From Burkholderiales bacterium (GTDB lineage: Bacteria; Pseudomonadota; Gammaproteobacteria; Burkholderiales; Methylophilaceae): a stretch of 64,000 bases of DNA. Shown in pieces: positions 27,455 through 54,700 of the stretch. The stretch spans positions 11 to 64,010 of the forward strand of contig JBBQLN010000010.1 in NCBI GenBank assembly GCA_038327905.1, given 5' to 3'. The number at the start of each line of letters is the position of its first letter. Positions within the stretch are counted from its first letter, which is position 1. The notes under the pieces are model-generated. The model saw nothing but the letters and a program-made list of their open reading frames with translations, was not told where the DNA came from and made no database searches. The translations under genes and the position numbers were made by a program.

Positions 27455-28939
27455 CTAATTTTTACTCAGCGTCTGGAAAGCAACTTTCAGTCGCTGAACC
27501 CCTTGCGACAACTCATCATTACCCAAGCTTCCAAATCCCATTCTAATTGCCTGTACAGTAAAACCATTATCCATAAAAAGTGAGCCCAGTAATATCTGTA
27601 CTCTTTCTTTGCTCGCACATACCACTAAGTTTTCTAAATTGACGTTCTTAGTCAGCCTTAGCCAGAATGCCAAGCCACCTTGCGGCATATCAAAATTCAC
27701 AAACTCTGATAGCTCACTTAGTAAAAGCTTTTCCAGTAAATTACGTCGCTCATGATAGATTTTAAATGTTCTGCGGATGTGACGCTTTACTTCACCAGTA
27801 TCAATCAACTCCGAAACAACCATCTCCGTGACGGAGTTACCTTGACGATCTATCAGCATAATTTCTGTGGCACATCGATCAACAAACTCTGGCGATGCAA
27901 CAAGATAACCTATGCGTAAACCAGGCGCCAATACTTTAGACATAGACCCTACGTAAACTACTCTGCCCGAGCTATCTGTGCTTGCTAGCGGCAAAGCTGG
28001 ATGATGCTCAAAGTGAAACTCGTGATCGTAATCATCTTCAATAATTACAAAATCATATTGCTCGGCTAGCATAAGAAGTTTTAATCTGCGCTCTGCAGTC
28101 ATCATTACGGTAGTAGGAAACTGATGATGCGGTGTCACATAAACCGCACGTATTTTTTGATCCTTACAGAGCAACTCGAGCTCATCCACCTTTAGACCAT
28201 ACTCATCAACACCCACACTTAATACGGTTGCGCCACATGATCTAAACGCATCTCTTGCAGGCGGATAAGTTAGATTTTCTAACACAACGACATCATTGGG
28301 ACGTACTAACACTCGTGCTGCCAGAAATATACCCATCTGGCTTCCACGTACTATGCAGATGCTATCAACATCCACATTTAAGCCTCTTTCTATATTAAGC
28401 ATGTTGGCGATTGATTGCCGTAATGACAACATCCCTCTTGGGCTGTCATAGCCCAGACAATTCACGCGTGAAGTACCGACTAAGGCATGGCGAAATGCTC
28501 GTGATAACACTTCAAACGGAATCAAACGCGCATCTGGAAGCCCATCGTTGAAGTCAATCACCTTGCTAGTTAATGTTTTCGCTTTTTGGCGCACTGGCTG
28601 CTGTGTATAAAGGCTGGATGATGTTGCTAAGTCAGCTTCAAAACGAGGACTAGGCAATTGCTCTAGGATTGTAAATTTAGGTAGTCTAGCTGAAACAAAC
28701 GTACCCCTTCGCTTTTCAGTGCTAAGCCAACCTTGGGCCACCAGCTCCTCATACGCCAGCATCACAGTTTTTCTATTCACTTTTAGGCTCGCGGCCAAAT
28801 CACGGGTACTTGGCATTGCTGTTGATGACTTTAATCGTCCAACTTTAATTTCTTCGATAATTTTTTGCACAATTTGCATGTATACCGCCATACCAGAATT
28901 CTGGCTAAGCGAGATATTTAACGCCCACAGTCGCAACAT
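27455..28939 (-). CDS. MocR/PdxR-type GntR regulator with fused aminotransferase-like (fold type I PLP) domain
   Basis: 494 aa. N-terminal wHTH (MPSTRDLAASLKVNRKTVMLAYEEL) plus a large aminotransferase class I/II-like domain (..SMSKVLAPGLRIGY.. with the PLP Lys context). Confidence 0.85.
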   Translation of the reverse strand: MLRLWALNISLSQNSGMAVYMQIVQKIIEEIKVGRLKSSTAMPSTRDLAASLKVNRKTVMLAYEELVAQGWLSTEKRRGTFVSARLPKFTILEQLPSPRFEADLATSSSLYTQQPVRQKAKTLTSKVIDFNDGLPDARLIPFEVLSRAFRHALVGTSRVNCLGYDSPRGMLSLRQSIANMLNIERGLNVDVDSICIVRGSQMGIFLAARVLVRPNDVVVLENLTYPPARDAFRSCGATVLSVGVDEYGLKVDELELLCKDQKIRAVYVTPHHQFPTTVMMTAERRLKLLMLAEQYDFVIIEDDYDHEFHFEHHPALPLASTDSSGRVVYVGSMSKVLAPGLRIGYLVASPEFVDRCATEIMLIDRQGNSVTEMVVSELIDTGEVKRHIRRTFKIYHERRNLLEKLLLSELSEFVNFDMPQGGLAFWLRLTKNVNLENLVVCASKERVQILLGSLFMDNGFTVQAIRMGFGSLGNDELSQGVQRLKVAFQTLSKN

Positions 28940-28961: not shown

Positions 28962-29152
28962 TTTTTGAATTCAAAAACAATCTCTGGACCATGTAACTTT
29001 ATTTTTCTGGCTCTTTTAAGAACCAGTAACAAATGGTTACACTTCGTTACAGTAATGTAAAGGGAAAATATTTCCCACAGATTCATTTAAGCAATAGCCC
29101 TTTAATCTCGCATTGAAATTAGAGGTTGAAATTAAATCTCTGAATATGTAAC
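28962..29152. promoter_or_regulatory. Motif-dense divergent control region (MocR gene <-> MoxR operon)
   Basis: 16-bp perfect palindrome TTTTTGAATTCAAAAA (28962-77). Hexamers GTTACA 29036, GTTACA 29046 and TGTAAA 29056 are phased at exactly 10 bp, with extra TGTAAC at 28992 and 29147. GGGAAA-ATA-TTTCCC lies at 29062-76. Direct repeat TTGAAATTA occurs twice (29113-21, 29126-34). Confidence 0.45.
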
Positions 29153-29181
29153 AACCAATTTTAAATTTTGTTGGGAATTTT

Positions 29182-30240
29182 ATGAACACTGCAACCGCAC
29201 CCCTTGGTACAAACAATATAGATGCTCAATTGAGCGATATGCGTGCACATGCCATTAAGTTAGAAAACGAAGTTAAAGGTGTCATCGTGGGTCAAGATAA
29301 GGCCATTCGTTTGATGAATACTGCCATCTTTGCACGTGGCCATGTGTTACTTGATGGTGGCGTGGGGGTTGGTAAAACAACGTTACTGCAAGCCATCGCA
29401 CGTGGTATTGGTGGTGCTTATGAGCGTATTGAGGGCACGGTTGACTTAATGCCAAACGACTTGATTTACCATACGTTTCTGGGGCCAGATGGTCGCCCGC
29501 AAATTGATGAAGGCCCTTTACTACGCGCTGGTGAAAATTTATCCGTATTCTTTTTTAACGAGATTAATCGCGCCCGCCCTCAAGTGCATGCGTTGATGTT
29601 ACGCGTGATGGCAGAACGCCATATTAGCGCGTTCAAAAAAGAATACCGCATGCCACACATGATTGTGTTTGCAGACCGTAACCAAGTTGAAAAGAACGAG
29701 ACATTCGAAATTCCTTCAGCTGCACGTGACCGTTTTATGATGGAAATTCCAATTGAGATTCCAACCGATCGTGAATTAAAGAAATCATTAGTATTTAACA
29801 CTAAATTTCAACATGCAGAAAAACTCACACAGCAAGTTGAAAGTAATATTTTACAGTTTGACCAACTCAATGCGTTTTCGGATATGTTGCAAAACCATAT
29901 TCAATCTAGCGACGTATTAGAAGAATACGCTTTGGACTTGTGGGAAGCTACACAACACCCTGAGAAATTTGGCGTAAAAATGGAAAGCGTAGACGTGGCC
30001 AGAGTCATTCAAACAGGCTCAAGTCCACGTGGTATGGGTATGTTGCTGAAAACGGCTCGCGTTAATGCTTGGTTAAACAACCGTGATAGCATGTTCCCTG
30101 AAGATATTCATGCGGTATTCCATGAAGTCATTTCACACCGTTTAGTATTTAACTCTATGTACGAAAATCGTAGAACAGCACTAGCACGCGAACTCACGGC
30201 AAATATCATGAGTACAGTAGCTGTACCTGCGGCCAAATAA
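29182..30240 (+). CDS. MoxR-family AAA+ ATPase (mxaR-like)
   Basis: 352 aa. Walker A GGVGVGKT. Walker B region FFFNEINRA (usually DEINRA). Sensor/Arg region ..SSPRG.. . First gene of the coupled operon. Confidence 0.88.
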   Translation: MNTATAPLGTNNIDAQLSDMRAHAIKLENEVKGVIVGQDKAIRLMNTAIFARGHVLLDGGVGVGKTTLLQAIARGIGGAYERIEGTVDLMPNDLIYHTFLGPDGRPQIDEGPLLRAGENLSVFFFNEINRARPQVHALMLRVMAERHISAFKKEYRMPHMIVFADRNQVEKNETFEIPSAARDRFMMEIPIEIPTDRELKKSLVFNTKFQHAEKLTQQVESNILQFDQLNAFSDMLQNHIQSSDVLEEYALDLWEATQHPEKFGVKMESVDVARVIQTGSSPRGMGMLLKTARVNAWLNNRDSMFPEDIHAVFHEVISHRLVFNSMYENRRTALARELTANIMSTVAVPAAK

Positions 30241-30247
30241 GCCTGTT

Positions 30248-31135
30248 ATGCAAACAGATTCACAGAAAACGCGGGAAGACTCCTACGCAAAGCCATTTGA
30301 ATACATTATCCCGTGGAAGTCGGCGAGCATTCATTTAGGTAGTCATCGCGGCACGCAACGCGGGTTGGGCTTTGACTACCGTGGCAATGTTAACTTGGTG
30401 GACCACCCAGATGCGCGCCGCATGGACATTCGTGAAACCATGCGCGACCCGTTTGAACAGGTGCAGGTGCGGCAATTTAATCAAGAAAGCACTACGCCAA
30501 TTTATGCAGTCTGTGATTTATCTAGCTCAATGCAATTTAAGGGTCGCCAACGTAAGTTAGATAAGGCCATAGAAATTGCAACGGCAGTGGCAAATTCAGC
30601 CTATCACACTGGCGATGTATTCAGCTTTATTGGCTACAACCAACATGTTATTGAAGATTTCACCTTGCCGCTCAGTCGTAACTTGCATCAAACAAAAGAG
30701 GTGATTGCGCAACTGCATGACTATCATAAAACACGCGTTGGCTCTGATGGCATTTTGGAGGTTCCTGGCTTTTTAGGACAAAACAAAAGCTTGGTGTTTT
30801 GGATTTCGGACTTTCATATGCCACTAGCGGTGATTGAACAAACACTTAACGCCATGTCTGCACACTGCGTGATCCCTGTAGTGCTATGGGATGATCAAGA
30901 GTACAAAAAATTACCGAAATTTGGCTTTGGCTCCCTGATTGACCCTGAAACTGGCATGAACCGTACCATCTTTTTTAGATATGAAGTACGAGCCAAATTC
31001 ATTACCTCGTTTAACGACCGCAGACATACCTTAGAGAAGCTGTTTCTAAAGTTTGACTCGCCTGCGCTATTTATGCATGCCGACTACAAACCTGAAACCA
31101 TGACGCATTATTTTGAACATTACATGAGCATGTGA
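30248..31135 (+). CDS. DUF58 family protein with VWA-like fold (mxaS-like)
   Basis: 295 aa. The GSHRGTQRGLGFDYRGNV..D.RRMDIRETMR stretch resembles the DUF58 signature, followed by the MIDAS-like CDLSSSM. Canonical partner of MoxR. Confidence 0.75.
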   Translation: MQTDSQKTREDSYAKPFEYIIPWKSASIHLGSHRGTQRGLGFDYRGNVNLVDHPDARRMDIRETMRDPFEQVQVRQFNQESTTPIYAVCDLSSSMQFKGRQRKLDKAIEIATAVANSAYHTGDVFSFIGYNQHVIEDFTLPLSRNLHQTKEVIAQLHDYHKTRVGSDGILEVPGFLGQNKSLVFWISDFHMPLAVIEQTLNAMSAHCVIPVVLWDDQEYKKLPKFGFGSLIDPETGMNRTIFFRYEVRAKFITSFNDRRHTLEKLFLKFDSPALFMHADYKPETMTHYFEHYMSM

Positions 31136-31145
31136 GTTTAACGCT

Positions 31146-32093
31146 ATGAAAAAATTAATTAACAATACATTTACCCCTGTTTTCTATTTACTCAGCTTGA
31201 GTTTAATCGCTTTAACGTCAAGCACCAGCATGACTTTTGCAGCAGACATCGTGCAAGGTAAGCTGATTTCAACTATTAACCCAAGCAAAAATAATGGGAT
31301 ATTGATTGGCGATGTATTAAGCAGAAAACTGGTACTAGAGACTCAAGATCCCTTTAGGTTATCCAAAACCAAATTACCTAAAGTTGGCGGAAAAACCAAT
31401 GGTATAGAGCTTGTTAACCTTAAAGTAGAAGAGTCAAAAACAAGTAAAAAACTACGCTATACCATCACGCTTGATTATCAAGTATTTGCTACGGCAGAGG
31501 TGCCAACGGTGATGTCGCTGCCTGCAGAAAAATTCACACTGACAGATGGTACCAATACTAATGTGCTCAACACGCCCGCTTGGTCGTTCTGGTTTGCGCC
31601 ATTGGTGACTGGAGGTGTGAATGCTGCAGACAAAAATATACAGCCACAACTAAGTACGCCGCTGATAGGTGTTGGTATGCACCAAAATCGCTTTTATATC
31701 TTTCTTGGTTTGTTGCTGTCTAGCGTTATAGCTTTAATTTATATTAACGCCGATAGACAGTGGATGCCATTCATGGGTGGCCCATTTGCGCAGGCGCATC
31801 GAAAACTTAAACGTTTGGCTAAAGGTAATGCTGAATTAGGAAGCCAGAAAAAAGCACTCATCACGATGCATCAAGCATTCAACCGAACTTTTGGGGTCAA
31901 TTTATTTGCAAGTGACATTCCTACCTTGGTGGCATCGCGTTCTAATTTCAGCAATATGCAAGGTGAAATCCAACAGTTTTTTAATGATTCAAACCAATCG
32001 CTCTACGCTAGAAATGCTCAAGACAACAGTAATACAATTGAAAAACTCGTGCAATTAAGTAAGCAATTGCGTGATTGTGAGCGGAGAGTTTAA
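31146..32093 (+). CDS. Exported protein with one late TM helix (position and size of MxaA; family not verified)
   Basis: 315 aa. Signal peptide ..TSSTSMTFA-AD, a hydrophobic helix FYIFLGLLLSSVIALIYI near residue 185, and a C-terminal tail of about 110 aa. Confidence 0.45.
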   Translation: MKKLINNTFTPVFYLLSLSLIALTSSTSMTFAADIVQGKLISTINPSKNNGILIGDVLSRKLVLETQDPFRLSKTKLPKVGGKTNGIELVNLKVEESKTSKKLRYTITLDYQVFATAEVPTVMSLPAEKFTLTDGTNTNVLNTPAWSFWFAPLVTGGVNAADKNIQPQLSTPLIGVGMHQNRFYIFLGLLLSSVIALIYINADRQWMPFMGGPFAQAHRKLKRLAKGNAELGSQKKALITMHQAFNRTFGVNLFASDIPTLVASRSNFSNMQGEIQQFFNDSNQSLYARNAQDNSNTIEKLVQLSKQLRDCERRV

Positions 32094-33064
32094 TGGTATT
32101 GCTTAACCCTTGGGCATTATTGTTACTGCCTTTCATACTTGTACCGTTTTGGCTTAAAAGCCATCAAGGCCAAATGTATTCTTGGCTAGAGATGATGCCA
32201 GAAGATCAGTTTTCTGATCGAGTGAATTTTGCGGTTAAAGTTATCACAGCCCTGCTACTAGCTTGCATTGTGCTAGCGTTAGTCTCACCTCGCGGGCCAG
32301 ATGAAAAAGTGCAGCGCGTTGGTAAAGGCGCGCAAACGGTTATGGTGATAGACCGCAGTGTAAGTATGGATCACCCCTTTGCAGGTGACAGTTCTGGTCA
32401 TGCATCTGAAATAAAATCAGGAGCGGCACGTCGCCTGATTACCAAGTTTATTGACTCTAGACCAGACGATATGATGGGTGTGGTGGGATTCACAAACTCA
32501 GCACTGTACGGCATCAAGATAACTAATAATCGTGAGGCAATTCATGCAGCTATTAATGCTGCAACCAGCCCATCTTTAAATCAAACCAATATTGGCTCTG
32601 GTTTAACCGAGGCTGTAGGGCTGTTTGATGGCATTGCAAGTACTGGCTCTAGAGCAATTATTTTGCTATCTGACGGTGCAGGTAAAATTAGTCCGCGTGT
32701 TAAGTTTTTATTAAGTGAAAGCCTTAAAAAACGCAACTTGAGTATCTATTGGATTGTATTGCGTGAGCCTGATGACGTGAGTATTTTCTCAGGCATGAAG
32801 TATGAAGCAGACCGCATTCCAGCCGCCATTGAACTGGATGAGTACTTCAAATCATTAGGGCTTAAGTACAAGGCTTATGAAGCAGACAATCCCGAAACAT
32901 TGCAGTCGGCAATTGCTGATATTGACTCACGTGAGAGAAAAATTATTCAGTACACCGAAATCATCGCAGGGTATGACTATTCAAGGGTATTTATTATCAT
33001 TGCTTTAGTTTTAAGCTTGATTATTTTAATCGTTAAGAATTTGAGAGTGCATGAAAATGACTAG
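32093..33064 (+). CDS. Membrane VWA-domain protein with BatA-type N-terminus (mxaC-like)
   Basis: 323 aa. N-terminus MVLLNPWALLLLPFILVPFWL is BatA_N-like. MIDAS elements DRSVS, T(NIGSGL) and LLSDGAG. C-terminal TM helix. The start overlaps the upstream stop (TAATG). Confidence 0.75.
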   Translation: MVLLNPWALLLLPFILVPFWLKSHQGQMYSWLEMMPEDQFSDRVNFAVKVITALLLACIVLALVSPRGPDEKVQRVGKGAQTVMVIDRSVSMDHPFAGDSSGHASEIKSGAARRLITKFIDSRPDDMMGVVGFTNSALYGIKITNNREAIHAAINAATSPSLNQTNIGSGLTEAVGLFDGIASTGSRAIILLSDGAGKISPRVKFLLSESLKKRNLSIYWIVLREPDDVSIFSGMKYEADRIPAAIELDEYFKSLGLKYKAYEADNPETLQSAIADIDSRERKIIQYTEIIAGYDYSRVFIIIALVLSLIILIVKNLRVHEND

Positions 33065-33638
33065 TCATAAAGTATCTCACAGTGTTAAACGTAAAAACCA
33101 ATTACTGGCCTTGGCTGTGCTAGCTGGTTTATTAGGAACGGCTTATGAAGCCTATGAGCTACATAAAATCAACAATGCAAATAGCGCTTTGCTAAAGGGT
33201 CAATTACTGACTAATGACGAATTTCCATTCAATAAAAAATTTGCAGAAGCTTATCACCAAGGTAAAACGGGTAACTACAAGCTTGCTGTGCAAGGTTATA
33301 CCCAGCTTCTTGAGTCGCCAAAAAGCAAGCAGAAAGAAGCTAGCCCAACCATTAATGCAGAGCAGCAATCGAAAATCCACTTCAATATTGCGACTAATTT
33401 GTTCCGCTCTGGCTTAGTAAGGCTGGTCAACGCTGATGGCACACTTCAAGATGACGCAGTATTTTCTTATAAACAGGCCGTATCTTCTTATGAGCAGGCT
33501 TTAAGGCTAGTGCCTACCTCTCAAGTCGTTAAATTCAATTTAAGCTTATTGCATTCCGTCATACCAAAAAATATGAGAGCCGCCGAAAAAGATCAAGCAG
33601 GCATGGCACTTAGCAACTTACCTCAAGGTTTGCCATGA
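33051..33638 (+). CDS. TM-anchored TPR-like protein (mxaK-like position)
   Basis: 195 aa. N-terminal anchor LLALAVLAGLLGTAY, then helical repeats (..YKLAVQGYTQLLE.., ..AVSSYEQALRLVP..). 14-nt overlap with the upstream gene. Confidence 0.5.
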   Translation: MKMTSHKVSHSVKRKNQLLALAVLAGLLGTAYEAYELHKINNANSALLKGQLLTNDEFPFNKKFAEAYHQGKTGNYKLAVQGYTQLLESPKSKQKEASPTINAEQQSKIHFNIATNLFRSGLVRLVNADGTLQDDAVFSYKQAVSSYEQALRLVPTSQVVKFNLSLLHSVIPKNMRAAEKDQAGMALSNLPQGLP

Positions 33639-34600
33639 GTAAATTATTAACCTTATTGAAACAAAATTATGAAACAGTTTTGCTGCTTTTTGCGGCTGTG
33701 TTTCTGCTACTAGCTTTGTTTAAACCAGACATTCAGTTAAAGCAGAATGTGCATAATTACTTGTTGCTTGCAGATGTTTCGCAAAGTATGAACGCCATCG
33801 ACATGAAAGTGGATAACAAAGCGAGTAGTCGCTTAGCTTATACACAGCACTTGATGAAAAAAGTGGTTGAAACCTCGCCTTGTGGTACCTATGTGAGCGT
33901 AGCGGTGTTTGCGGCAGAAAATGCAGCGCTATTGTTTATGCCGCTAGAAGTATGTAGCAATTATGATGTGATTTCAGACACCATAGACCATTTAGAGTGG
34001 CGTATGGCATGGAGTGGCAATAGCCGCATGACGTTTGGTGTAAAGGCCGCAGAAGGTGTATTTGATTACTTAAACATTCCAGCACAAATGCTATTTTTTA
34101 CTGATGGTGATGAGTCACCTAAATCCAATGGTATTAACAAGCTAGACATTAGCGATGTGACTATCGGTAAAAATGTGATTTTTGTCGGTGTTGGTGGGCA
34201 TGAACCCTCCCCTATTCCTCGCTATAACGCCAACAACGGCTTTGTTGGATATTGGGGAACGGATGCTGCTGCAGAAAGCGCGGGCGGCGGCATTATGTAC
34301 AACGATGCAAGTAAAGATGATCCAGACCCTCCTGTAGCCTACGCAGAATTCGATCGTTATTTGTCTAAGTTAGATGTAGATCACTTAAAAGATATGGCAA
34401 ACGAGATTAAAGGTCAGTATGTAGAGGGGCTTGATAAACCTGAGTTTTATGATTTTATTCAAACACAAAAACCAGCGGCAAAATTTGTGACGGGTTACTC
34501 TGTGCGTTGGATCTATTTAAGTCTAGCCGCATTGCTTATACTTTCAACCTTTCTACCAAACTTGTTATCTTTATGGGCGGGCAAACGGTTAGCAGGCTAA
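33635..34600 (+). CDS. Membrane VWA-domain protein (mxaL-like)
   Basis: 321 aa. N-terminal TM helix, MIDAS DVSQS and FFTDGDE, C-terminal TM helix. ATGA overlap with the upstream gene. Confidence 0.7.
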   Translation: MSKLLTLLKQNYETVLLLFAAVFLLLALFKPDIQLKQNVHNYLLLADVSQSMNAIDMKVDNKASSRLAYTQHLMKKVVETSPCGTYVSVAVFAAENAALLFMPLEVCSNYDVISDTIDHLEWRMAWSGNSRMTFGVKAAEGVFDYLNIPAQMLFFTDGDESPKSNGINKLDISDVTIGKNVIFVGVGGHEPSPIPRYNANNGFVGYWGTDAAAESAGGGIMYNDASKDDPDPPVAYAEFDRYLSKLDVDHLKDMANEIKGQYVEGLDKPEFYDFIQTQKPAAKFVTGYSVRWIYLSLAALLILSTFLPNLLSLWAGKRLAG

Positions 34601-34832: not shown

Positions 34833-35774
34833 CTATTCGGATTTATGAATAAACAAGAAATTTAAATCATGTGTTGGTTTAAAGTTTTGCTGATGAAACT
34901 CAAAAGTCAGCGGGTCTATTTTTTTTAACTCACCATCAAAACAAAAACTGACGATGTCTTTCGGACGCAGCTTTTTCACAGTTAACTTAAAATCTTTAAT
35001 TGCACCCTGCCAATTGTTGGCTGTCACTAATATATAACTAATATCCGCCCAATATAAGCCGTATTCTTTCTCTAAATTTTTCATTTGCAGCTGTGTACTT
35101 TTGTCTATACAGGCAACTTTTGCGTAATCATCAATCAAGTATTTAGCTGGCTGCGGCACGCCCGTGCTGATGCTAGGTGAGTAAGAATGTTGAATAGCGA
35201 CTGGCTTACCAGCTGGGAAATTTTGCTGCCAAGTAAAATATTCATTCAACGTAAATAATGGCACACCATCATTATCAAACCACGCATTAGGCAACGGCTT
35301 CTTACCTTTAGGTGGCTCATCCGCTACAAACCCATCACCAATATAGCCAATTAAATCTTTTTCACTCCATCCGTTCTCTGCAACTTTTTTAGAAATATCG
35401 GTTTTACCATCAAGCAATATCACAAGCTTACGTTCGGTTTTAATAGGCTTACTATCAACCCAAAGTTTAAAGTCCTTAATTTGCCCATGGTCAGAAGAGC
35501 CAAAATACATAGCAGGCATTGGAAACGCGATAGGCACAACTAAATCTTGGTGGCTTGTATTGGTAAACACATAATCCACTTTAACTTTTTCTTCACTGAT
35601 ATAGAGCGACTCTTTATCCATGCTGATATTGCGCTGATGCTTAAAAGTAATAGTGCCATTATCATCGCCAATGCTGCTGTCATTGGCGTAAGCAAATACG
35701 TTGTGGAATAGCGCGGTAATTAAAAAACTAATTTTTAAAGTTTGAATACAAGTCATATAAAACCACATTAACAT
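34833..35774 (-). CDS. Secreted protein of unknown function (possibly DUF4424-like)
   Basis: 313 aa. Signal peptide ..LFHNVFAYA-ND, beta-rich. The family is recalled only loosely. Alternative ATG starts exist at 35768 and 35756. Confidence 0.4.
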   Translation of the reverse strand: MLMWFYMTCIQTLKISFLITALFHNVFAYANDSSIGDDNGTITFKHQRNISMDKESLYISEEKVKVDYVFTNTSHQDLVVPIAFPMPAMYFGSSDHGQIKDFKLWVDSKPIKTERKLVILLDGKTDISKKVAENGWSEKDLIGYIGDGFVADEPPKGKKPLPNAWFDNDGVPLFTLNEYFTWQQNFPAGKPVAIQHSYSPSISTGVPQPAKYLIDDYAKVACIDKSTQLQMKNLEKEYGLYWADISYILVTANNWQGAIKDFKLTVKKLRPKDIVSFCFDGELKKIDPLTFEFHQQNFKPTHDLNFLFIHKSE

Positions 35775-37375: not shown

Positions 37376-39124
37376 TTGAGAAAAATCCTTTTAATGTGTT
37401 TTTTGTGGCTATTTTGGACTCTGCCTGCACAGGCAGAGTCAGCACTTTATCAGGTTGAAATCACTGCCCCAGCGCCACTCAAAGACTTACTACAAAAACA
37501 TCTAGACATGCTGAAGTGGCGAGATAATCCACGGATGAATCCAGCAGAGTGGCAGCGCTTATTTTCTCTAGCGCCACAAAACATCAAAGACTTAATCGCA
37601 ACCGAAGGCTACTTCGCATCCAAAATTAAGTCAACGTTTGAAAATCAAAGTGGTGTCTACCTTGCAAAGTTTGTGGTCGAGGCTGGAGAACCTGTTTTAG
37701 TCAGTAATGTGGCGTTAAAATTTACCGGGGAGATTGCCACGCAACCAGCAGATGCCAAGCCTAGCGTAGAAAAACTGCGTGAAACATGGCCATTGAAACA
37801 AGGTGAGCCTTTCCGCCAAGCGGACTGGAACCAAGCCAAACGCAAATTATTGACTGAATTCTTAGTCGAGCGCTATCCCAATGCCAGCATCAGCAATAGC
37901 AAGGCAGAAGTTAATATTGAAACGCAGACTGTCGCACTCAGTGTCGAGATTGATAGCGGCGCAGCGATTAGGTTTGGTGATACTACAATAGAAGGGTTAA
38001 AACGCTATAAACCTAGAGTGGTTGAAAACCTAAACCCAATTAAACCAGGTCGTATTTACAACCAATCTGACATGTTGACTTTTCAAACACGCTTGCAGGA
38101 AAGTGGTTACTTTCAAAGTGTAGAAGTATCCGCTGATACACTTAACTCAAGTAACAGTGCTGAGCCGAATATCGCGCCAATTAAAGTCACCGCCGTTGAA
38201 AATCGTAGCATTAAAATGGGCATAGGTGCTGGCTTTAGTACCAACACGGGGCCTCGCGTTCAGCTATCAGTATATGATTTAAACTTGCTTAATTTAGGCT
38301 GGAGACTGTCCAGCAATCTCAAATTAGAAAAAAATGCGCAGGTACTTACTAGCGAAATTCATTTACCAATCACCAAAGCAGGTTTCCGAGATAGCCTAAA
38401 CGCAGATGTGTCTCATACCTTGATAGAAGGCTTGGATTTAACCATTGTGCAAACTGGCGTTAAACGTGCTTGGGGAGACAGAAAACGTGAGCAATACGTG
38501 ACTGCAAACTTACTCACGGAGCACTCATCGCCTGAAGGTGCAAGCTCTGACAGCACTTACGCAGGCACACTCGGCTATGGCATTATACTTAGGCATACTG
38601 ATAACGATCTTAATCCAACGCGGGGCTATCTACTAAATGTGCAATTTACTGGCGCGCCACTAACCTCTACAGCTAACGGTATTTTTTTGCAAAGCCATGT
38701 TAAAGCGCAGGCTTATTATCCAATTACGTCCAGCACCCAGTTTATAGCACGCGCTGAAATTGGCTTGGTGAATGGCAAAAACAGCGCCCCAGAATTATAT
38801 TTATTTCGTGCAGGCGGTGACCAATCGGTGCGTGGTTACGCCTTCCAAAGCTTGGGTATAAAAGAAGGTGATGCCATTGTTGGTGGGCGTTACATTGCAA
38901 CAGGTAGCGTTGAAGTGGTGCAGTGGCTCACCAGCCAGTGGGGAGCAGCAGTGTTTGTGGATGCAGGCAATGCGGCAAACTCATTACAAGACTTATCACC
39001 CGTGTATGGCTATGGTTTAGGCGCGCGCTGGAAAAGCCCGTTAGGGCCGATTGGTGCTGATATTGCTTATGGTGAAGCCACTGGAGAGTATCGATTTCAC
39101 TTTAATATAGGCGTAGCTTTCTGA
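37376..39124 (+). CDS. tamA: Omp85-family outer membrane protein TamA (translocation and assembly module)
   Basis: 582 aa. A TTG start gives the signal peptide MRKILLMCFLWLFWTLPAQA. POTRA-like N-terminal region and a C-terminal beta-barrel ending ..FHFNIGVAF. Immediately followed by tamB. Confidence 0.8.
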   Translation: MRKILLMCFLWLFWTLPAQAESALYQVEITAPAPLKDLLQKHLDMLKWRDNPRMNPAEWQRLFSLAPQNIKDLIATEGYFASKIKSTFENQSGVYLAKFVVEAGEPVLVSNVALKFTGEIATQPADAKPSVEKLRETWPLKQGEPFRQADWNQAKRKLLTEFLVERYPNASISNSKAEVNIETQTVALSVEIDSGAAIRFGDTTIEGLKRYKPRVVENLNPIKPGRIYNQSDMLTFQTRLQESGYFQSVEVSADTLNSSNSAEPNIAPIKVTAVENRSIKMGIGAGFSTNTGPRVQLSVYDLNLLNLGWRLSSNLKLEKNAQVLTSEIHLPITKAGFRDSLNADVSHTLIEGLDLTIVQTGVKRAWGDRKREQYVTANLLTEHSSPEGASSDSTYAGTLGYGIILRHTDNDLNPTRGYLLNVQFTGAPLTSTANGIFLQSHVKAQAYYPITSSTQFIARAEIGLVNGKNSAPELYLFRAGGDQSVRGYAFQSLGIKEGDAIVGGRYIATGSVEVVQWLTSQWGAAVFVDAGNAANSLQDLSPVYGYGLGARWKSPLGPIGADIAYGEATGEYRFHFNIGVAF

Positions 39125-42100
39125 TGATGCAACGCTACTTTTCAATGCGCTATTTAATGCTAATCGTGATGAGTCTCACGCTACTCATCTCGTCCGCACA
39201 TAGTGCAATGTCAATTAATGCCAATACCAGCCTTGATACTTTCAGTTACGATCTTGATAACATTCATCTAAAACTTGAAAAACTAGAGGCTAATTGGCAA
39301 CTCTCCCCATTAAACGGCGGTAAGTTAATGGTGGATAAAATGCGCGCAAGACGGCTTATTATCACGGTAGGTGACGGTACGGCAAAAGCTAAAGATTCAG
39401 GTCTGCCTGAGCATATTAAACCACCCTTTCCTATTCAAATTAATCAGGCTGAAATTAGCGAAATACTCGTCATTAAAAATGGTGAAACTCAAACCTATAA
39501 AAATCTAAAAATTAATCTTGAAGCTGATGCTAAAACTATCAAGATAAATACGTTAGACCTTAGTACGCCTTGGGGAGAAGCTTCGACAACATTACAGATG
39601 AGTACCGCAAAACCGTTTATGCTGAATGGTCTAACCAGCCTCAAAAAAACTGATGCCAGCACGCCTTACGATGTAAAAGTAGCGCTATCTGGCGACTTGC
39701 ACTCATTAGGCTTTAATAGCAACTTAGCACTCGTTAAAGACAACAAGCAGCTAGCCATACTCCAATCTCAACAAGCCAATACATCCCCAGTGGCTCTTTT
39801 AAATATTAAAGGGCAACTCGTTTTAAGCGATGATTATCCACTCTCGGCTAATATCACGATTGACGAACTCAAACCTGAAAACATAGGCAGCTATCCCGCA
39901 GCAAAACTCAACGTTGACATCGCAGTAAAGGGAAAACTTTTACCTACTTTAAGCACCTCTATTCAGTTTGCAGCACGCGATAGCCAATGGCAAAATCAAA
40001 CCTTGCTTAGCAAAGGCAACATCACTATTGAAGGTAAAAAAATCCAAAATATCGACCTACAAGCGAGTATCGCCAACAATACCATTCAAGCCAATGGCAG
40101 CCTTGGACAAGCAGACAGTGAGCTTAATTGGCAGATAGATTTGGCTGATTTAAAGAAATTTGGTGCAGAGTATTCTGGTCAGGCAAATGTGAGTGGTACG
40201 ATGACAGGGGCTTTTGATAATTTAGCACTTCAGCTCAAATTGCTGGCAAACAATCTCAAGCTAGCAGGTGGCTTAAAAGTCGACAAGCTAGAAGGTCAGG
40301 CCTCGATAATGGCGGATGAAAATGGCCAAGTGAAAGGTGAATTTACCGCCAGCAATCTACAATACGGCAAACATCCTGTGATGAATTCTAATCTGACTTT
40401 GCAGGGGTCGCGAGCACAGCATCAGCTAAACCTAACAGCACAAGGCAAAGCGTTTAAATTCGCGAGTACGCTGCAAGGCGGCTTAATCGCTGCAACAAAT
40501 CGCTGGCAAGGGGTATTGCAGAATCTTAATTTGGAAGGAACATCACCTGTCAAACTTGCCGCACCTGCCCCCCTAATAGTTGACACTCAAGGTGCCTCAC
40601 TGGCACAAGCGCACCTACAATTAAATAAAGGCAATCTGTTGATTGACTTTATAAAATATGACGCTAAGGGCTTTGAAACTGCAGGTCATGCAGAGCAATT
40701 AACGCTTGATGACTTACCAGCAGAGCTATTTATATTGCCATCCACGCTCCAAGGTAGCCCTACGTTTTCTGCAAAATGGGATATTAAAGCGACGGATAGC
40801 TTAAATGGTAACCTCAACTTATGGCGCGATAGTGGCGACTTCATGATGACCACAGCCGATGGCTCCAAAAAACCGTTGGGTTTGCAAGAGGCTAAATTTG
40901 ATGCCAAGTTTGTCAATAATCAAGCTGAGATTAGCACTAGCCTTAAAGGGCAGAATATTGGCTTTTTAGAGGCTAATTTAAGCACCATGCTCACCAAAGT
41001 GAATGCTGGCTTTGCCTTGCTTGGCAGCGCGCCACTTACCTTAAATGGCAAAGCACAATTACAAACACTGGCATGGCTACCAATGCCAACATCTCTAATG
41101 GACGCCAGCTTTGATGGTCTTTTGAATATGACCGTTTCGGCTAACGGCACGCTAGCCGCACCTAATTTAAACGGCAATTTAGATGGTAAGAATCTGCAAT
41201 TTTCACTACCAACAGAAGGCGTAGCCTTTACCAATGGCGAAGTACAAGCAAGCTTTGAACATGATAAGTTGCTGATAACAAAAGCCTCATGGCAAGGCGG
41301 CGATGGAAAATTACAGACAACTGGATCTTTATTGCTAAATGAAGGTAAACCACAAGTAGATTTAGATTGGTCTGCACAAAACTTCACAGCAATCTCACGT
41401 GCGGATCGCCTACTCACATTAAATGGCACGGGCAAAACCACATTAGCTAATGGCCTACTCATGATTTCAGGTAACTTCAATGTAGCAAAAGGGCTCGTTG
41501 AACTGTCTGATGAAGACACGCCAGTACTGGGTGACGACGTGGTCATTATCGGGCAAACCGACAGCACTCCTGAACCTGCACTCAAAATATTATTGAACGG
41601 ATTACGTATCAGTTTAGGCAAAGAGTTTACCTTGCGTGGTCGAGGGCTAGACGCGCAACTCACAGGCGCGTTAACCTTAACAGGCCTAACGCAATATCAG
41701 CCACACACCGAAGGCGTCATTGAAGTAAAAGATGGCTCTTTCTCCGCTTACGGACAAAAATTAATCATAGATCGTGGCATCATTAATTTTAACGGCACAG
41801 TAGAAAATCCAGCACTCAATATCAGAGCCATGCGCAATAGCACACCAGTCAATGCGGGTATCGAGGTCACAGGGACGGCGCTGATTCCTATTACGAAATT
41901 AGTGTCTGACCCAACCGTCGCAGACAGCGAGAAGTTGTCATGGCTAGTACTAGGTCACGGCTTAGACCAAACTAGCAAAGGTGACTATGGCTTATTATCA
42001 TTAGCTGCAGGCGTATTGCTGTCGCAAGGACAATCCGTACCATTACAAACTCAATTAGCGCGCGCTGCTGGCCTAGATGAGTTTAGCTTCTCTGGCGGTG

Positions 42101-42291
42101 ATGCAGACAGCGCCGCTGTAGTATTTGGCAAACGCCTTTCTTCAAGACTCTATCTCAGCTACCAAAAAAGCATCAGCGGACTTTTAGACGTCGCCAGACT
42201 CACCTATAACATGACATCGCGCTGGTCGCTGCGCGGACAGGCTGGCACAGAAAGCGCCGTGGATGTGCTGTATACTTTTAGCTTCAAATAA
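39124..42291 (+). CDS. tamB: Translocation and assembly module protein TamB (DUF490 C-terminus)
   Basis: 1055 aa. N-terminal signal anchor, a long beta-rich repetitive body and a conserved C-terminal region (..LSWLVLG.., ..RLSSRLYLSYQKSI..). The ATG overlaps the tamA stop (TGATG). Confidence 0.8.
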   Translation: MMQRYFSMRYLMLIVMSLTLLISSAHSAMSINANTSLDTFSYDLDNIHLKLEKLEANWQLSPLNGGKLMVDKMRARRLIITVGDGTAKAKDSGLPEHIKPPFPIQINQAEISEILVIKNGETQTYKNLKINLEADAKTIKINTLDLSTPWGEASTTLQMSTAKPFMLNGLTSLKKTDASTPYDVKVALSGDLHSLGFNSNLALVKDNKQLAILQSQQANTSPVALLNIKGQLVLSDDYPLSANITIDELKPENIGSYPAAKLNVDIAVKGKLLPTLSTSIQFAARDSQWQNQTLLSKGNITIEGKKIQNIDLQASIANNTIQANGSLGQADSELNWQIDLADLKKFGAEYSGQANVSGTMTGAFDNLALQLKLLANNLKLAGGLKVDKLEGQASIMADENGQVKGEFTASNLQYGKHPVMNSNLTLQGSRAQHQLNLTAQGKAFKFASTLQGGLIAATNRWQGVLQNLNLEGTSPVKLAAPAPLIVDTQGASLAQAHLQLNKGNLLIDFIKYDAKGFETAGHAEQLTLDDLPAELFILPSTLQGSPTFSAKWDIKATDSLNGNLNLWRDSGDFMMTTADGSKKPLGLQEAKFDAKFVNNQAEISTSLKGQNIGFLEANLSTMLTKVNAGFALLGSAPLTLNGKAQLQTLAWLPMPTSLMDASFDGLLNMTVSANGTLAAPNLNGNLDGKNLQFSLPTEGVAFTNGEVQASFEHDKLLITKASWQGGDGKLQTTGSLLLNEGKPQVDLDWSAQNFTAISRADRLLTLNGTGKTTLANGLLMISGNFNVAKGLVELSDEDTPVLGDDVVIIGQTDSTPEPALKILLNGLRISLGKEFTLRGRGLDAQLTGALTLTGLTQYQPHTEGVIEVKDGSFSAYGQKLIIDRGIINFNGTVENPALNIRAMRNSTPVNAGIEVTGTALIPITKLVSDPTVADSEKLSWLVLGHGLDQTSKGDYGLLSLAAGVLLSQGQSVPLQTQLARAAGLDEFSFSGGDADSAAVVFGKRLSSRLYLSYQKSISGLLDVARLTYNMTSRWSLRGQAGTESAVDVLYTFSFK

Positions 42292-48754: not shown

Positions 48755-51700
48755 ATGTCTTTCGTCCGTTCAGGTTTGCAGTTTGTTCAAATGGTATTAG
48801 CGCGATTATGGTCACTTGCTAGTACGATACTCGGCTTTTTCTTTGGCTCTGTGAACTATCAAGCACCTGCGTGGATGAAGTGGTGCGGGGACAAACTAAA
48901 TAACCTGCGCTTATCGATGATTCAAAAGCCAATTAAAGGCTTAGGCATACTTGCTTTAGTTGCTGCACTTGGCGCTGGGGGCTGGCATGGCTGGGAATGG
49001 TACAAAGCTAGACCGCAACCAGTCACTGTAAAAGTCACTGTAACCGTTCCAACTAGAACACAAATCGAAGATAATTTACCGCCAAACCCACTCAAAATAA
49101 GCTTTGATGCATCAGTAGCGCCCATTGAGCAAGTGGGGAAAGTGATCTCGGCTAATGTTAATATCATGCCGAAAATTGATGGCGTATGGAAATGGGATGC
49201 TGAAAACGAATTGTCATTTCAGCCAAAAGCTGACTGGCCTGTGGGCACTGACTTCAAAGTTAGTCTGAATGCCAAAGCATTGACACCTAAGACACTGCTA
49301 GACAAGTGGGATGTAGAATTCACCTCGCCATTATTTATTGCAGCCATTACTAACAGCGAGTTTTATCAAGATCCAATTAACGCCGCAATGAAAAAAGTGG
49401 TAGTTAACCTTAACTTTAGTCACCCAGTTGATACAGCAAAACTAGAAAAAAGTATTACGCTAAAAATGCGTAGTAACAAAACTAGCTTACTTAATTTTGG
49501 CTCAGACACGATACCCTTTGTTGTAAGTTACGATAAATTAAAACTCAACGCTTACATCCACTCTGCACCGCTAGACATTCCAAAGGATGACAGCATATTA
49601 GAAGTGACGGTAGATGAAGGCTTAAAAGCTGCAACTGGCGGCAAACCATTTGCAACGTCTTTAACACAAAGCGTGAATGTGCCTGGCTTATATAGCTTGT
49701 TGATAAATGAAGTTAGCCCGATTGTAGTTTCTAATGAGCAAAATGAGCCTGAGCAAATCCTATTGCTTAACGCTTCAGCTGCAGTCAATGAAAAAGACAT
49801 GGCGAGCCATATTAAAGCATGGGTATTGCCACGCAATAAATTGGTCAGTACGCCAGAAGAGTTAAAATATCCACACGCATGGTCTAATACAAAAGACATT
49901 ACTGAAGCTGTTCTTGCTGCTGGCAAGCCGCTTTCACTAGAAGCCATTCCAGCTGAACGTGAAAATATAGAAACACACTCGTTTAAATATAAAGCGGATG
50001 TTGGCAGCTATATTTATGTGCAAATTGACAAAGGCTTAAAATCTTTTGGCGGTTATCAATTAGGCGCAACAACACAACGTATTTTACAAGTACCAGTATT
50101 TCCTGCAGAAGTTAAAATTCTCAGCCAAGGTTCATTGCTGGCTTTAAGTGGTGAACGCAAAGTGGCGGTATTAGCGCGCGATTTACCAGGTTTAAAAATG
50201 GAAATTGGGCGTATTCTGCCAGGTCAGTTGCAACATCTTATTACGCAAACCAGTGGCAGCTTTAGCAATCCATCATTCTATTACTCTATTGATGGTGATA
50301 ATTTGAGTGAACGTTTTGAGAAAAACATTCCCTTGCATTTAGAGGCGGGGGAAGCGCATTACGAAGCACTAGATTTGAGTGAATACTTAAGCAAAACTGA
50401 GGGCTTAGATAAAAATCAAAACAAACGCGGTGTTTTCTTGCTTACAGTGCGCGGTTACAAACCTAAGAAAGAAGCCAATGCTGACGGTAGCGAGCAGACT
50501 GATGATGGCAGTGATTACAACCCATCAGAAAACCAAAATCCAGAAGCATTTGTTGATAAACGTCTAATCCTTGTCACCGATTTAGGCTTAATCGCCAAAA
50601 AAGAACTCGATGGCAGCCAAGTGGTTTATGTACAGTCTATTCATACAGGTTTGCCAGTGGCTGGCGCTACGGTTGAGGTGATTGCAAAAAATGGTCAAGC
50701 CATCTTCAGTCAAACAACGGATGCCAATGGACGTGTTAACTTTACCAAGCTAGATGGCTTACAGCGTGAACGCTCACCTATTTTATATATCGTGAAAAAA
50801 GCGGGTGATTTAAGCTTCCTGCCGATTAATCACTATGACAGAAACCTAGACTATTCACGCTTTGACGTAGGTGGCATTGCCAATGCGGCCAGTTCAGATA
50901 GCTTAAATGCTTATCTATTCTCAGACCGTGGCATTTATCGCCCTGGCGATACCATGCATATCGGTATGATAGTCAAAACTGCTACTTGGGCTAAAGCATT
51001 AGACGGCTTACCGTTGCAAGCGGAAGTGCTTGATGCGCGTGGCCTAGTGGTAAAAACTCAAATGGTTAAGCTGGGTGCAGGCGGCTTTAATGAGCTGGAA
51101 TATAAAACTTTAGAAACCTCGCCTACTGGTACTTACAATATTAATCTTTACTCAGTTAAAGATGGCAATGCTTACCAGCAATTAGGCTCTGTCAGTGTAA
51201 AAGTGCAGGAGTTTCAGCCTGATCGCATGAAGGTAAAAGCCTTGTTTGCAAAAGATGCAACGCTTTACCCTGAAACCACTGAGGGCTGGCTAAATCCTAA
51301 AGATTTAAAAGCCAACATCAATGTGCAAAATCTGTTTGGCACACCCGCTGAAAATAGACGCGTGACAGCCAAAATGATGCTCAGCCCAGCATATCCAGCA
51401 TTTAGCCAATATGCAGACTTTGCATTCTACGACCCCTTACGCGCAAAAGAAGGCTATAGCGAGAAATTGAGCGATGCTACCAGTAACGCGCAAGGCGTGG
51501 CTGAGTTTGCCTTAGGTTTAGAAAAGTACACCAAAGCGACTTACAGACTCAACATTGTCGCTCAAGCCTATGAAGCTGGCGGCGGACGCAGTGTTTCCGC
51601 AGAAGTTGCAACGCTGATTTCAGAACAACCTTATTTGATAGGTTTTAAAGCCGATGGCGATTTAAATTACGTCAGCAAAGCTAGCAAACGTAACGTTAAT

Positions 51701-54700
51701 CTGATTGCAGTCAATTCAACCCTGCAAAAAGTAGCCGCCGAAGACTTGAGCTTGAATCTGATTGAGCGCAAATACGTTTCTGTGTTGACCAAACAAGGTA
51801 GCGGCACATTTAAATATGAATCGCGCAAAAAAGAAGTGCTCATCAAAGAGTCGCCTTATAGCATCAAAGCTACAGGCAACAGCCTAGCGCTTGCCTCAGA
51901 AACACCGGGTGATTTTGCTTACGTGCTTAAAAACAAAGATGGCTTAGAGCTAAACCGCGTGGAATACAGCGTGGCTGGCTTAGGTAATGTAAGCCGCTCA
52001 CTAGAGCGTAATGCGGAGCTAAAACTAGCACTAGATAAAAAAGACTATGCCGCCGGCCAAGAGATTAGTATCAGCATTCGCGCACCTTATGTGGGCGCTG
52101 GCTTGATTACCATTGAGCGCGATAAAGTGTATGCACAACAATGGTTTAAAGCTGACTCTCAAGCATCTGTGCAAAAAATCAAATTGCCTGCAGACTTTGA
52201 AGGTAACGGCTATGTGAGCGTGCAGTTTGTGCGCGATCCAAGTTCAGATGAAATTTTCACCAGCCCGCTATCATATGGTGTAGTGCCGTTTGTAACGAGC
52301 TTATCGCAGCGCACCAATACGTTGAAACTCAGTAGTCAGCCGCTCATCAAACCTGGCCAAGTGCTGAAGATGAAATTGAATGCAGCTAAACCTGGCCGTG
52401 CTGTGGTATTTGCGGTGGATGAAGGTATCTTACAAGTCGCAAGATATAAAAACCCCGATGCGCTTGGTTTCTTCTTCCAAAAACGACAATTAGAAGTTTC
52501 AACTTCACAAATTTTGGATTTAATCTTACCTGAGTTCAAAAAGATTATGGCTGCAACCGCACCTGGCGGCGATGCTGATGGTGCTTTGGGTAAACACTTA
52601 AATCCATTCAAACGTAAAACTGACAAGCCAGCCGTTTATTGGTCTGGCATTGTCGATGTGACTGATAGCAAAGAATTTAGTTATACAGTGCCAGAAACAT
52701 TCAACGGTAAAATGCGCATTATCGCTGTGATGGTGAGCGATGCCAGCATTGGCATTACCACTAGTGACGCCTTAGTTCGTGGTGACTTTGTACTGTCACC
52801 CAACGCGCCACTCACAGTCACTCCAGGTGATACTTTTGACGTCAGCGTTGGCGTCTCTAACAATGTCAAAGGTTCTGGTAAAGAGGCCGCGGTAACGCTT
52901 AACCTTGCACCTTCACCCGCCTTTGAACTCGTTGGTGCAGCTAAACAAGTGTTAAAAATCGGCGAGTTGCGAGAAGGCACGGGTCTTTACAAGCTTAAAG
53001 TTAAAGAAGGTGCAGCCGCTAAATTAGGCTCCGCTAGAATTGAATTCACCGCAAATATCGGTGATAAGTTTGCAAAACTGGGTACTGAGATTAGTGTGCG
53101 TCCATCCACACCTCACATGACCATTATGCAAACAGGTAGCTTTAAAGGCGACACGCAAGTCAGCGTGAAGCGCACCATGTTTGCAGAGTATCGCAAACAG
53201 CAAGCAAGTGTTTCACCATTGCCTTTAGTGGCCGCTGGCGGTTTGCTTGATTACTTAGCTAACTATGAGCATAGCTGTACTGAGCAATTGGTCAGTCAAG
53301 TCATGCCTATCATCGTACTTAAAAAACGTCCAGAACTCTTGGCGAGTGTCAGCACTAAAAAAAGTAATTTCGAAAACGCCTTAAGCGTATTACGTACACG
53401 CCAAAATGCTGAAGGTGGCTTTGGCTTGTGGGATGCCAGTGTAGGGGCAGACGAGTTCGCCAGCGTTTATGCGGTTCACATGATGCTAGAAGCCCGTGAC
53501 CATGCGAATGTTGGTGAAGAGATCCCTGCTGACATGCTAAAAAAAGGCTTGGAGTATTTGCAAACCTTAGCGGCCAGCCCAGCAACAAACCTAGATGCTG
53601 CTCGTGTGAGGGCTTACGCAACGTACTTGCTGACGCGCGAAGGCACGGTCACCACACCGTTGTTAGCAAGCTTGCGCAGTACGCTAGATGCTAAAACTTT
53701 AACTGACAATAGTTTCAAAGAGTGGCGCTCAGACTTAACTGCGGCTTATCTTGCAGCGAGCTATCAGCTATTGCAGCAGCATGCCGTAGCCAGCGACTTA
53801 ATCACTAAGCCTGTAAAATTGTTGAACGCAAGGAGCCAACAAGCTATCTATGGGCATTATTACGATGATGTGGTGCGAAATGCACAAACGCTTTACTTAG
53901 TGTCACGCCACTTTCCAGAAAAAGTGAAAGAGGTATCAAGCGACGCGTTAAATAACATCATGAAGCCTATTTCGGAAGGTCGCTTCAATACCTTGTCATC
54001 GTCTTATGCGTTACTTGGATTTGATGCTTATGCTAACGTTGCTGGGATAAAAGTCGCAGGTCAAATGGGTATTAGCGCGATAGATAAGCAAGGCAAAGTC
54101 ACAACGCTGAAATTAGCAGAAAACAGTATTGCACCTTCGGCGAACTTTTCACCAGAGACCGCACGTTTGAAGCTACAAGGACCAAGTGGCTTGCCATTAT
54201 TCTACGCAGTCACAGAGTCTGGTTTTGACATAAAACCACCAGCTACTGCATTAAAACAAGGCATGGAAATCATCCGTGAATATACGGACGATAAAGGCGC
54301 TGCGTTAAAATCAATCACCATGGGTGACGAAATCACCGTGCACATCAAAATCCGCGCGATTGACGGTAATGTAGATGACGTGGCGATTGTAGATTTGCTA
54401 CCAGGTGGCTTCGAGCCTGTGTTGCAAGCTGCCGTAAGCGAAACAGATAGCAGCATTTCTCAAGGAGGTGAAGAAGGCTACAATGAAGGTGAAGGCCAAG
54501 CGCCAGAAATTTCCAGCTGGACTAGTCCGCTTGGCATTGGGGGTGGTTGGCAACCAAGCTATGCAGATATTCGTGAAGACCGTGTAGTTTTTTACGGCGC
54601 AGTCACCAACACGATTACAGAGTTCACTTACAAAATCAAGGCCACAAACAGTGGCCAATTTGTAGTGCCGCCAGCTTATGCAGAGTCAATGTATAACCGC

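Follow-up and report, generated by a model that had tools for sequence, protein, structure and literature searches.

A MocR-linked mxaRSACKL paralog of the Methylophilaceae and its possible relationship to XoxF

All six genes of the canonical mxaRSACKL set are required for the incorporation of Ca2+ into MxaFI methanol dehydrogenase (MDH), and a MoxR/VWA complex, of unknown mechanism, has been proposed for their products (PMC12276312). The same 2025 assembly study states that XoxF maturation ‘remains to be elucidated’. Beck et al. (2014; PMC4109929) describe Methylophilaceae genomes as carrying between two and four mxaRSACKL clusters, one downstream of mxaFJGI and the others ‘elsewhere on the chromosomes’. 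According to the same paper, strains JLW8 and 301, which are without mxaFJGI, have two clusters each, both MxaRSACKL and XoxF fall within the core genome of the family, and in Methylotenera mobilis 13 a second accessory cluster follows the canonical operon, separated from it by ‘one gene’. Here we describe a six-gene module of this kind, encoded on the + strand at positions 29182-34600 of a 64-kb stretch of the Methylophilaceae contig JBBQLN010000010.1 (hereafter the window), together with its divergent MocR-type regulator, a candidate operator and a possible client, the pyrroloquinoline quinone (PQQ) dehydrogenase XoxF.

The six-gene module as an mxaRSACKL paralog

The module consists of six tightly packed open reading frames (ORFs), listed here with their Pfam matches, transmembrane (TM) segments and metal-ion-dependent adhesion site (MIDAS) motifs.

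29182-30240, + strand: ORF1, mxaR-like MoxR AAA+ ATPase of 352 aa (AAA_3, 9.9e-25; AAA_lid_2, 1.5e-12; Walker A GGVGVGKT)
30248-31135, + strand: ORF2, mxaS-like DUF58 protein of 295 aa (DUF58, 1.2e-18; MIDAS-like DLSSS)
31146-32093, + strand: ORF3, mxaA-like bitopic protein of 315 aa (homologs, BLASTP against canonical MxaA, AlphaFold2 model)
32093-33064, + strand: ORF4, mxaC-like VWA protein of 323 aa (VWA_2, 2.9e-10; MIDAS DRSVS; three TM segments, an N-terminal pair and one at the C-terminus)
33051-33638, + strand: ORF5, mxaK-like membrane-anchored TPR-like protein of 195 aa (BLASTP against canonical MxaK, E = 3e-5)
33635-34600, + strand: ORF6, mxaL-like TM-VWA-TM protein of 321 aa (VWA_2, 3.6e-9; MIDAS DVSQS; one TM segment at each end)

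The junctions are, in order, gaps of 7 nt and 10 nt and overlaps of 1 nt (TAATG), 14 nt and 4 nt (ATGA). The initial annotation had given these six ORFs with the same sizes and junctions, which coordinates and translation confirm, and its domain types, DxSxS motifs and TM segments agree with the Pfam matches and with inspection of motifs and TM segments. The arrangement is not a product of chance, since the R-S-A-C-K-L order recurs in all 59 of the related loci fetched. These loci came from a scan of one genome per species, the genome of the window itself not being among the species representatives, and those identified to family all belong to the Methylophilaceae (Methylotenera, Methylophilus, Methylovorus, Methylobacillus and uncultured lineages).

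Canonical reference sets were taken from M. mobilis 13 (locus L036) and from Methylotenera sp. L2L1 (L060). The gene order in L060 is PQQ dehydrogenase, SBP_bac_3 protein, cytochrome c, MDH small subunit (PF02315), R, S, A, C, K, L and SRPBCC protein, which is a textbook mxaFJGIRSACKLD operon, and its large subunit, MxaF, has the calcium-type motif WDFAG. ORF3 aligns end to end with the canonical MxaA of L036 cluster 1 (BLASTP, E = 8e-16; 22% identity over ∼ 300 aa), a 79%-identical homolog of which sits in the mxaFJGIRSACKLD operon of L060. The alignment of ORF5 with canonical MxaK is weak, and consistent in position (26% identity over 137 aa at the E-value listed above). Across the module, identity to the canonical set is 49% for R, 30% for S, 22-23% for A, 34% for C and 27% for L. 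Because ORF3 and ORF5 align to canonical MxaA and MxaK, it is close to certain from these comparisons that the module is a genuine but distant paralog of mxaRSACKL and not a Bat operon.

The Bat operons of Bacteroides and Leptospira (moxR-DUF58-x-batA-batB-batC-batD) share with the module a MoxR ATPase, a DUF58 protein, a TPR protein and membrane VWA proteins that have a TM hairpin as in BatA, but the order VWA-TPR-VWA and the lack of BatD and BatE set the module apart. The TPR gene sits between both VWA genes, so that the batA-batB adjacency is absent. The NCBIfam models for BatA, BatB and BatC score 42.9, 33.1 and 15.8 against cutoffs of 380, 350 and 175 (about a tenth), and no module ORF matches the BatD family. 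The preference for mxaRSACKL over Bat that had been voiced in the initial annotation is thus upheld by the ORF3-MxaA and ORF5-MxaK alignments and by the low Bat scores, and the case that would have spoken against it, an ORF3 and ORF5 without similarity to MxaA and MxaK, did not arise. Family matches were obtained for the AAA_3, DUF58 and VWA domains, and for ORF3 no Pfam or NCBIfam family was matched.

Compared with canonical mxaRSACKL(D), the module has the same six gene types in the same order and with the same tight coupling, whereas mxaF, J, G, I and D are not nearby; conversely, the module has its own MocR regulator and operator, both of which the canonical set is without. A scan of the window found no PQQ domain in any ORF of at least 446 aa outside the module, tblastn with three XoxF sequences from related loci gave no match anywhere in the window (best E = 2.9), and window scans placed no gene for an MDH small subunit, cytochrome cL, MxaJ or MxaD near the module. 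The absence of a dehydrogenase partner from the 64 kb, as first annotated, is therefore borne out by the PQQ-domain scan and the XoxF search, and within the window the module is not physically linked to mxaFJGI or mxaD.

This orphan state had been presented as unusual. As PMC4109929 shows, it is a documented and ordinary property of the family, in which extra clusters away from mxaFJGI are already published, and the window module is one of these additional clusters, with six genes, no mxaD and a position away from mxaFJGI. It is orthologous to the M. mobilis 13 cluster of Beck et al. that lies behind ‘one gene’, and this ‘one gene’, in both L036 and L060, is the MocR regulator. No regulator, operator or xoxF adjacency is described for the clusters in the passages of PMC4109929 drawn on here.

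The six subunits are unevenly conserved. Identity to the closest orthologs is 90-95% for R, 80-86% for S, 74-81% for C and 77-82% for L, and falls to 50-62% for K and 45-52% for A; from these values MxaA and MxaK are the fast-evolving subunits, and the genome of the window belongs to a Methylotenera-like organism. The divergence of the MxaA-like protein is unusual beside the 90-95% identity of MoxR at the same loci, and it is greatest in the periplasmic domain of ORF3 (43% identity to orthologs vs 56% for the cytoplasmic domain). ORF3 has 211 homologs, many of which are labelled ‘mxaA protein’ by JGI, and those with an organism name come from Methylotenera, Methylophilus or unclassified (Beta)proteobacteria. 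Its sequence begins with a signal-like N-terminus and has a TM segment at residues 183-201. An AlphaFold2 model built from a 59-sequence alignment (overall predicted local distance difference test score, pLDDT, 75.8) predicts a signal helix, a β-sandwich at residues 38-150 (pLDDT 85-91), a TM helix at 176-202 and a C-terminal helical bundle. A fold search of the model against the PDB gave a best E of 3.4e-4, with TM-scores of 0.24 (query length) and 0.42 (target length), and returned solely generic, TM-anchored folds of the immunoglobulin-like or TRAP-beta-like type, from which no function can be inferred.

Among the remaining proteins, the DxSxS motif of ORF2 is kept in 56 of 56 homologs, and the Pfam TPR matches of ORF5 are all sub-threshold. 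ORF1 is 90-95% identical to its Methylotenera orthologs and 49% to canonical MxaR. Its Walker B motif (N126-E127, window 29557-29562) reads FFFNEINR, with an Asn at the position where the AAA_3/MoxR consensus has an Asp. A reading of this Asn as a sign of decay was rejected, as the canonical MxaR copies checked share it. FFFNEINR is present in 46 of the 56 MxaR sequences in which a motif search located the site, canonical mxaFJGI-linked copies included, and the Asn is therefore a family trait.

The MocR-type regulator and a conserved operator array

Upstream of the module, on the opposite strand, lies the gene for a regulator, and the intergenic region between it and mxaR contains a repeat array.

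27455-28939, - strand: MocR-type regulator with a GntR helix-turn-helix (HTH) domain (1.9e-14) and a pyridoxal 5'-phosphate (PLP)-dependent aminotransferase-fold domain (Aminotran_1_2, 1.5e-20)
28984-29011, + strand: candidate operator core CTGGACCA-N15-CTGGC (found once in the window; chance expectation 0.10)
29036-29051, + strand: GTTACA direct repeat, two copies 10 bp apart (29036 and 29046), at a conserved distance after the CTGG repeats

From its GntR HTH, fold-type I aminotransferase domain and PLP lysine, the 27455-28939 product is classed as a MocR-type regulator. The PLP lysine motif is SMSK, and SxSK is kept in 41 of 41 homologs. The protein scores 363.9 bits with the NCBIfam model for PdxR-type MocR proteins (cutoff 320); no pdx gene is found near MocR, where the conserved divergent neighbour is mxaR or xoxF. 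Of the 59 related loci, 36 have MocR in this divergent position ahead of mxaR, with 58-66% identity, and a map of clustered ORFs shows that MocR (-) then RSACKL (+) is a fixed arrangement, whereas on the far side of MocR and of L each genome has different genes. MocR is thus not the incidental neighbour that its first description implied; by gene order the module has no other conserved partner, and the locus as a whole is a conserved seven-gene Methylophilaceae unit made up of MocR and a divergent mxaRSACKL paralog.

The whole array, CTGGACCA-N15-CTGG followed by GTTACA, occupies window positions 28984-29051. Alignment of the MocR-mxaR intergenic regions of orthologs revealed three CTGGA elements, 36 and 23 bp apart, of which the middle one is CTGGACCA, and then one or two copies of GTTACA ∼ 28 bp after the last CTGGA (29 bp in the window). 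The first, upstream repeat is seen in many orthologs and is degenerate in the window. A search of both strands of 1.04 Mb of related loci plus the window with CTGGNCCA-N15-CTGG gave 39 matches where ∼ 0.5 would be expected, by our own estimate from 11 fixed bases. Of these matches 37 lie upstream of the mxaR of this paralog, two lie upstream of xoxF and none is found elsewhere; in particular, the array was never found before the canonical, mxaD-linked accessory sets of the related loci.

The array is present in all 36 loci with MocR (33 exact, three with small variants) and in none of the 13 loci without MocR that have enough upstream sequence, although the loci are related to one another and these counts are not independent events. 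Most of the 13 MocR-less loci carry a TetR gene and an unknown gene in place of MocR, and in L006, with its additional genes next to MocR, the array has remained at mxaR. Since the presence of the array tracks that of MocR, it is likely that MocR controls the module through the array. A metagenome scan for the array returned 120 loci, ∼ 96 of which are chance matches in unrelated GC backgrounds, and we kept just the 24 loci in which MocR occurs together with mxaR or xoxF. In 20 of these MocR and the array accompany mxaR, and in the other four they accompany xoxF.

This layout has much in common with the MocR/GabR/PdxR family: a GntR HTH, an aminotransferase fold and a PLP lysine, a gene divergent from its presumed target, and direct repeats in the intergenic region at intervals of two to three helical turns. 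The direct repeats of GabR operators are arranged similarly. The targets described for the family are genes for γ-aminobutyric acid, vitamin B6, taurine and ectoine, whereas here the presumed target is a metal-chaperone operon (and, in relatives, xoxF). A literature search for MocR together with methanol dehydrogenase or with Methylophilaceae genera turned up no relevant paper. In the literature searched, neither the MocR partnership nor the operator common to xoxF was found, while the module itself is not new.

Several further observations concern the same region. The MocR paired with xoxF in L066 and L104 is just 49-54% identical to the window MocR, compared with 58-66% for the mxaR-paired MocR of the genome loci, which suggests a second MocR paralog using a similar operator. 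Between the array and the mxaR start the window has ∼ 60-100 extra bases relative to orthologs (29052-29181), which include the palindrome GGGAAAATATTTCCC at 29062-29076. A reading of CTGGACCA as part of a sigma-54 promoter was dropped, as no fitting -12 element could be seen by eye. A scan for consensus promoters and terminators found fewer sites than in shuffled sequence and is hence uninformative. Fourteen metagenome loci matching the array pattern (L069, L075, L089, L099, L109, L111, L115, L126, L135, L137, L141, L147, L150 and L174) share the same 30-nt gap, have a GC content of 0.52-0.58 and carry no mxa, xox or MocR genes; they are probably conserved unrelated sequence from one abundant taxon.

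The surroundings of mxaR also vary in some Methylotenera metagenome-assembled genomes (L006, positions 5027-7658, and L009, L014, L021 and L026), which have extra genes upstream of mxaR, located between MocR and mxaR where the contig includes MocR. Alongside an extra mxaL-like VWA gene, different loci have the gene for a membrane protein of 147 aa, for a regulator of the AraC type, or for an unknown 250-aa protein accompanied by a TetR gene; the operator array remains beside mxaR. In M. mobilis 13 a TonB-dependent receptor gene (L036, 13472-15682, - strand) separates the MocR-linked cluster from a third accessory cluster, which is inverted; this receptor might be connected with lanthanide uptake.

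XoxF as the possible client

In three of the related loci (L048, L023 and L015) a PQQ dehydrogenase of 597-627 aa is encoded between MocR and mxaR, on the strand of the module and directly upstream of it, and the MoxR of these loci is 91-93% identical to that of the window. The L023 dehydrogenase, the sole one scanned, matches Pfam PQQ (4e-41) and scores 597 bits with TIGR03075 against a cutoff of 480. The full array occurs twice in L048 and L023, once before xoxF and once before mxaR, and it precedes xoxF in six related contigs, namely these two and four metagenome contigs. The five xoxF-type enzymes whose sequences reach the motif all have WDYDG together with vicinal cysteines (CCD); the L104 sequence ends before the motif, and L092 is outside this count. 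We take the extra Asp of WDYDG to be the signature of a lanthanide-type enzyme.

Because the operator array is common to xoxF and the genes are adjacent in relatives, XoxF is a plausible client of the module, a proposal whose chances we put at about even on this genomic evidence. Slightly better than even is the weight that we give to the module being a MocR-controlled, envelope-spanning set of metal-loading chaperones that would serve a XoxF encoded elsewhere in the genome. A bolder version, which we regard as tentative and as having rather less than an even chance, is that the MocR-linked paralog is the missing XoxF maturation system, which would be driven by ATP, would load a lanthanide and not calcium, and would be co-regulated with xoxF by MocR through the shared triple-repeat operator. 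The client had been left open in the initial annotation; the window does lack one, whereas XoxF is suggested by the cis-elements common to xoxF and the module and by the position of xoxF in relatives.

By homology with the canonical Ca2+-loading set of MxaFI, the six proteins may form a machine that spans the cell envelope. Its membrane topology was predicted from hydropathy and positive-inside statistics over ∼ 60 orthologs. The VWA domain of C is probably cytoplasmic, because its flanks are rich in Lys/Arg and 45 of 59 homologs have no Cys, and the VWA domain of L is probably periplasmic, because both tails of the protein are rich in Lys/Arg and 46 of 64 homologs have exactly two Cys. The N-terminus of ORF5 is rich in Lys/Arg before its hydrophobic segment, and the TPR-like part of K is predicted to be periplasmic. 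The MoxR AAA+ ATPase (R) and a DUF58 adaptor (S) would thus be cytoplasmic, as would the VWA domain that C carries and the helical tail with which A ends, while A would expose its β-sandwich, K its TPR-like domain and L its MIDAS-bearing VWA domain to the periplasm. The effect of ATP hydrolysis by R would pass through S and through the cytoplasmic portions of C (VWA domain) and A (tail) and be transmitted across the membrane, where the MIDAS domain of L, the TPR of K and the β-sandwich of A would hold the apo PQQ dehydrogenase and deliver the metal ion. Control of expression would probably lie with MocR, through the CTGGACCA-N15-CTGG(A)/GTTACA array that separates the two transcription units.

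Several points weigh against assigning the module to XoxF. According to a 2024 review, XoxF needs neither mxaACKLD nor mxaRSEH (PMC11845868). The window is without xoxF, and the link rests on relatives, among which adjacency to xoxF is a minority arrangement (three of the 59 genome loci plus four metagenome contigs); among the genome loci xoxF lies upstream of the orthologous module solely in L015, L023 and L048. In L060 and L036 the unit adjoins the canonical mxa operon, which fits a role in MxaFI maturation too, and NCBIfam would name the regulator PdxR, a regulator of vitamin B6. We infer the binding of MocR to the array from sequence, and the topology from hydropathy, the positive-inside rule and cysteine counts alone. 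A word-indexed search, of limited reach, gave no sequence link from ORF3 to the experimentally studied MxaA proteins of Alpha- and Gammaproteobacteria. Starting from the canonical MxaA of M. mobilis 13, the search found seven close relatives, none of them named, and a profile of the divergent MxaA-like paralogs gave 102 matches, mostly unnamed 287-aa proteins and with no named MxaA among them; in both searches the few matches with an organism name are Methylotenera.

Two other clients have to be considered beside XoxF. The module could be a spare or condition-specific Ca2+-insertion set for a classical MxaFI encoded elsewhere in the genome, as would suit its homology with the canonical set (ORF3 with MxaA, ORF5 with MxaK) and the position of the MocR unit immediately downstream of mxaFJGIRSACKLD in L2L1 and M. 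mobilis 13. The canonical operon, however, has a full RSACKL(D) set of its own, strains without mxaFJGI keep two clusters (PMC4109929), and the canonical sets lack the operator array, which is common to xoxF instead; this leaves the spare-set explanation unlikely. Marginally less unlikely, and still improbable, is that the module is a general Bat-like MoxR/VWA membrane chaperone with a client other than a PQQ enzyme, such as another periplasmic or membrane metalloprotein, or with a function in stress tolerance. Operons of MoxR, DUF58 and VWA genes are widespread, similarity to the BatA, BatB and BatC models is detectable though weak, the window holds no client gene, and the regulator scores as a MocR of the PdxR type, for which a connection with methanol oxidation is not obvious. 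Set against this are Bat scores far below cutoff, the specific matches of ORF3 and ORF5 to MxaA and MxaK, the fact that the relatives identified to family are all Methylophilaceae, that is, methylotrophs, and an operator shared solely with xoxF. Neither explanation accounts for that operator.

A MoxR-VWA-type role in phage defence or conflict, which a secondary Pfam match of ORF1 to bpMoxR (2.2e-11; MoxR-vWA-beta-propeller ternary systems) might suggest, is very improbable. The bpMoxR match overlaps the stronger AAA_3 match, a PADLOC scan of the six proteins yielded two sub-threshold AAA matches and nothing for the other five proteins, and no β-propeller or effector gene is present. Moreover, the unit is a family-wide core feature of conserved order and not a variable island.

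Other genes of the window and implications of the locus

The neighbours of the module are those first annotated, the divergent MocR-type regulator (GntR plus aminotransferase) and a convergent gene (34833-35774, - strand) whose product, a DUF4424 protein (2.6e-86), has an N-terminus resembling a signal sequence; in none of the 59 related loci did tblastn find a homolog of this protein. Large ORFs elsewhere in the window encode aconitase B, class I fumarase, an AMP-dependent ligase, SdhA, lipoamide dehydrogenase, pyruvate dehydrogenase E1 and E2, TamA, TamB, an alpha-2-macroglobulin with PbpC, and a flavin adenine dinucleotide (FAD) oxidase. The TamA (Omp85/POTRA) and TamB pair lies downstream of purB (37376-42291). 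At 48755-57148 the gene for a bacterial alpha-2-macroglobulin (2000 aa) precedes that for a PbpC-type penicillin-binding protein, and the two proteins are known as a pair in periplasmic defence. The block at 7278-27396 contains prpB, prpC, prpD, sdhB, malic enzyme, four HpcH/HpaI-type lyases, a mesaconyl-CoA hydratase-like protein and a GntR/UTRA regulator in addition to the aconitase B, class I fumarase, sdhA and AMP-dependent ligase genes, and resembles the ‘methylcitric acid cycle’ gene island of Methylotenera, which is reported to be highly transcribed (PMC3728764).

For the family, the interest of the locus lies in how XoxF acquires its metal. The prevailing view in review is that XoxF needs no mxa accessory genes (PMC11845868), yet Methylophilaceae without MxaFI keep mxaRSACKL, as PMC4109929 records. 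One specific paralog, with a regulator family and a highly specific operator that is common to xoxF, would offer a concrete and testable route into the metal loading of XoxF.

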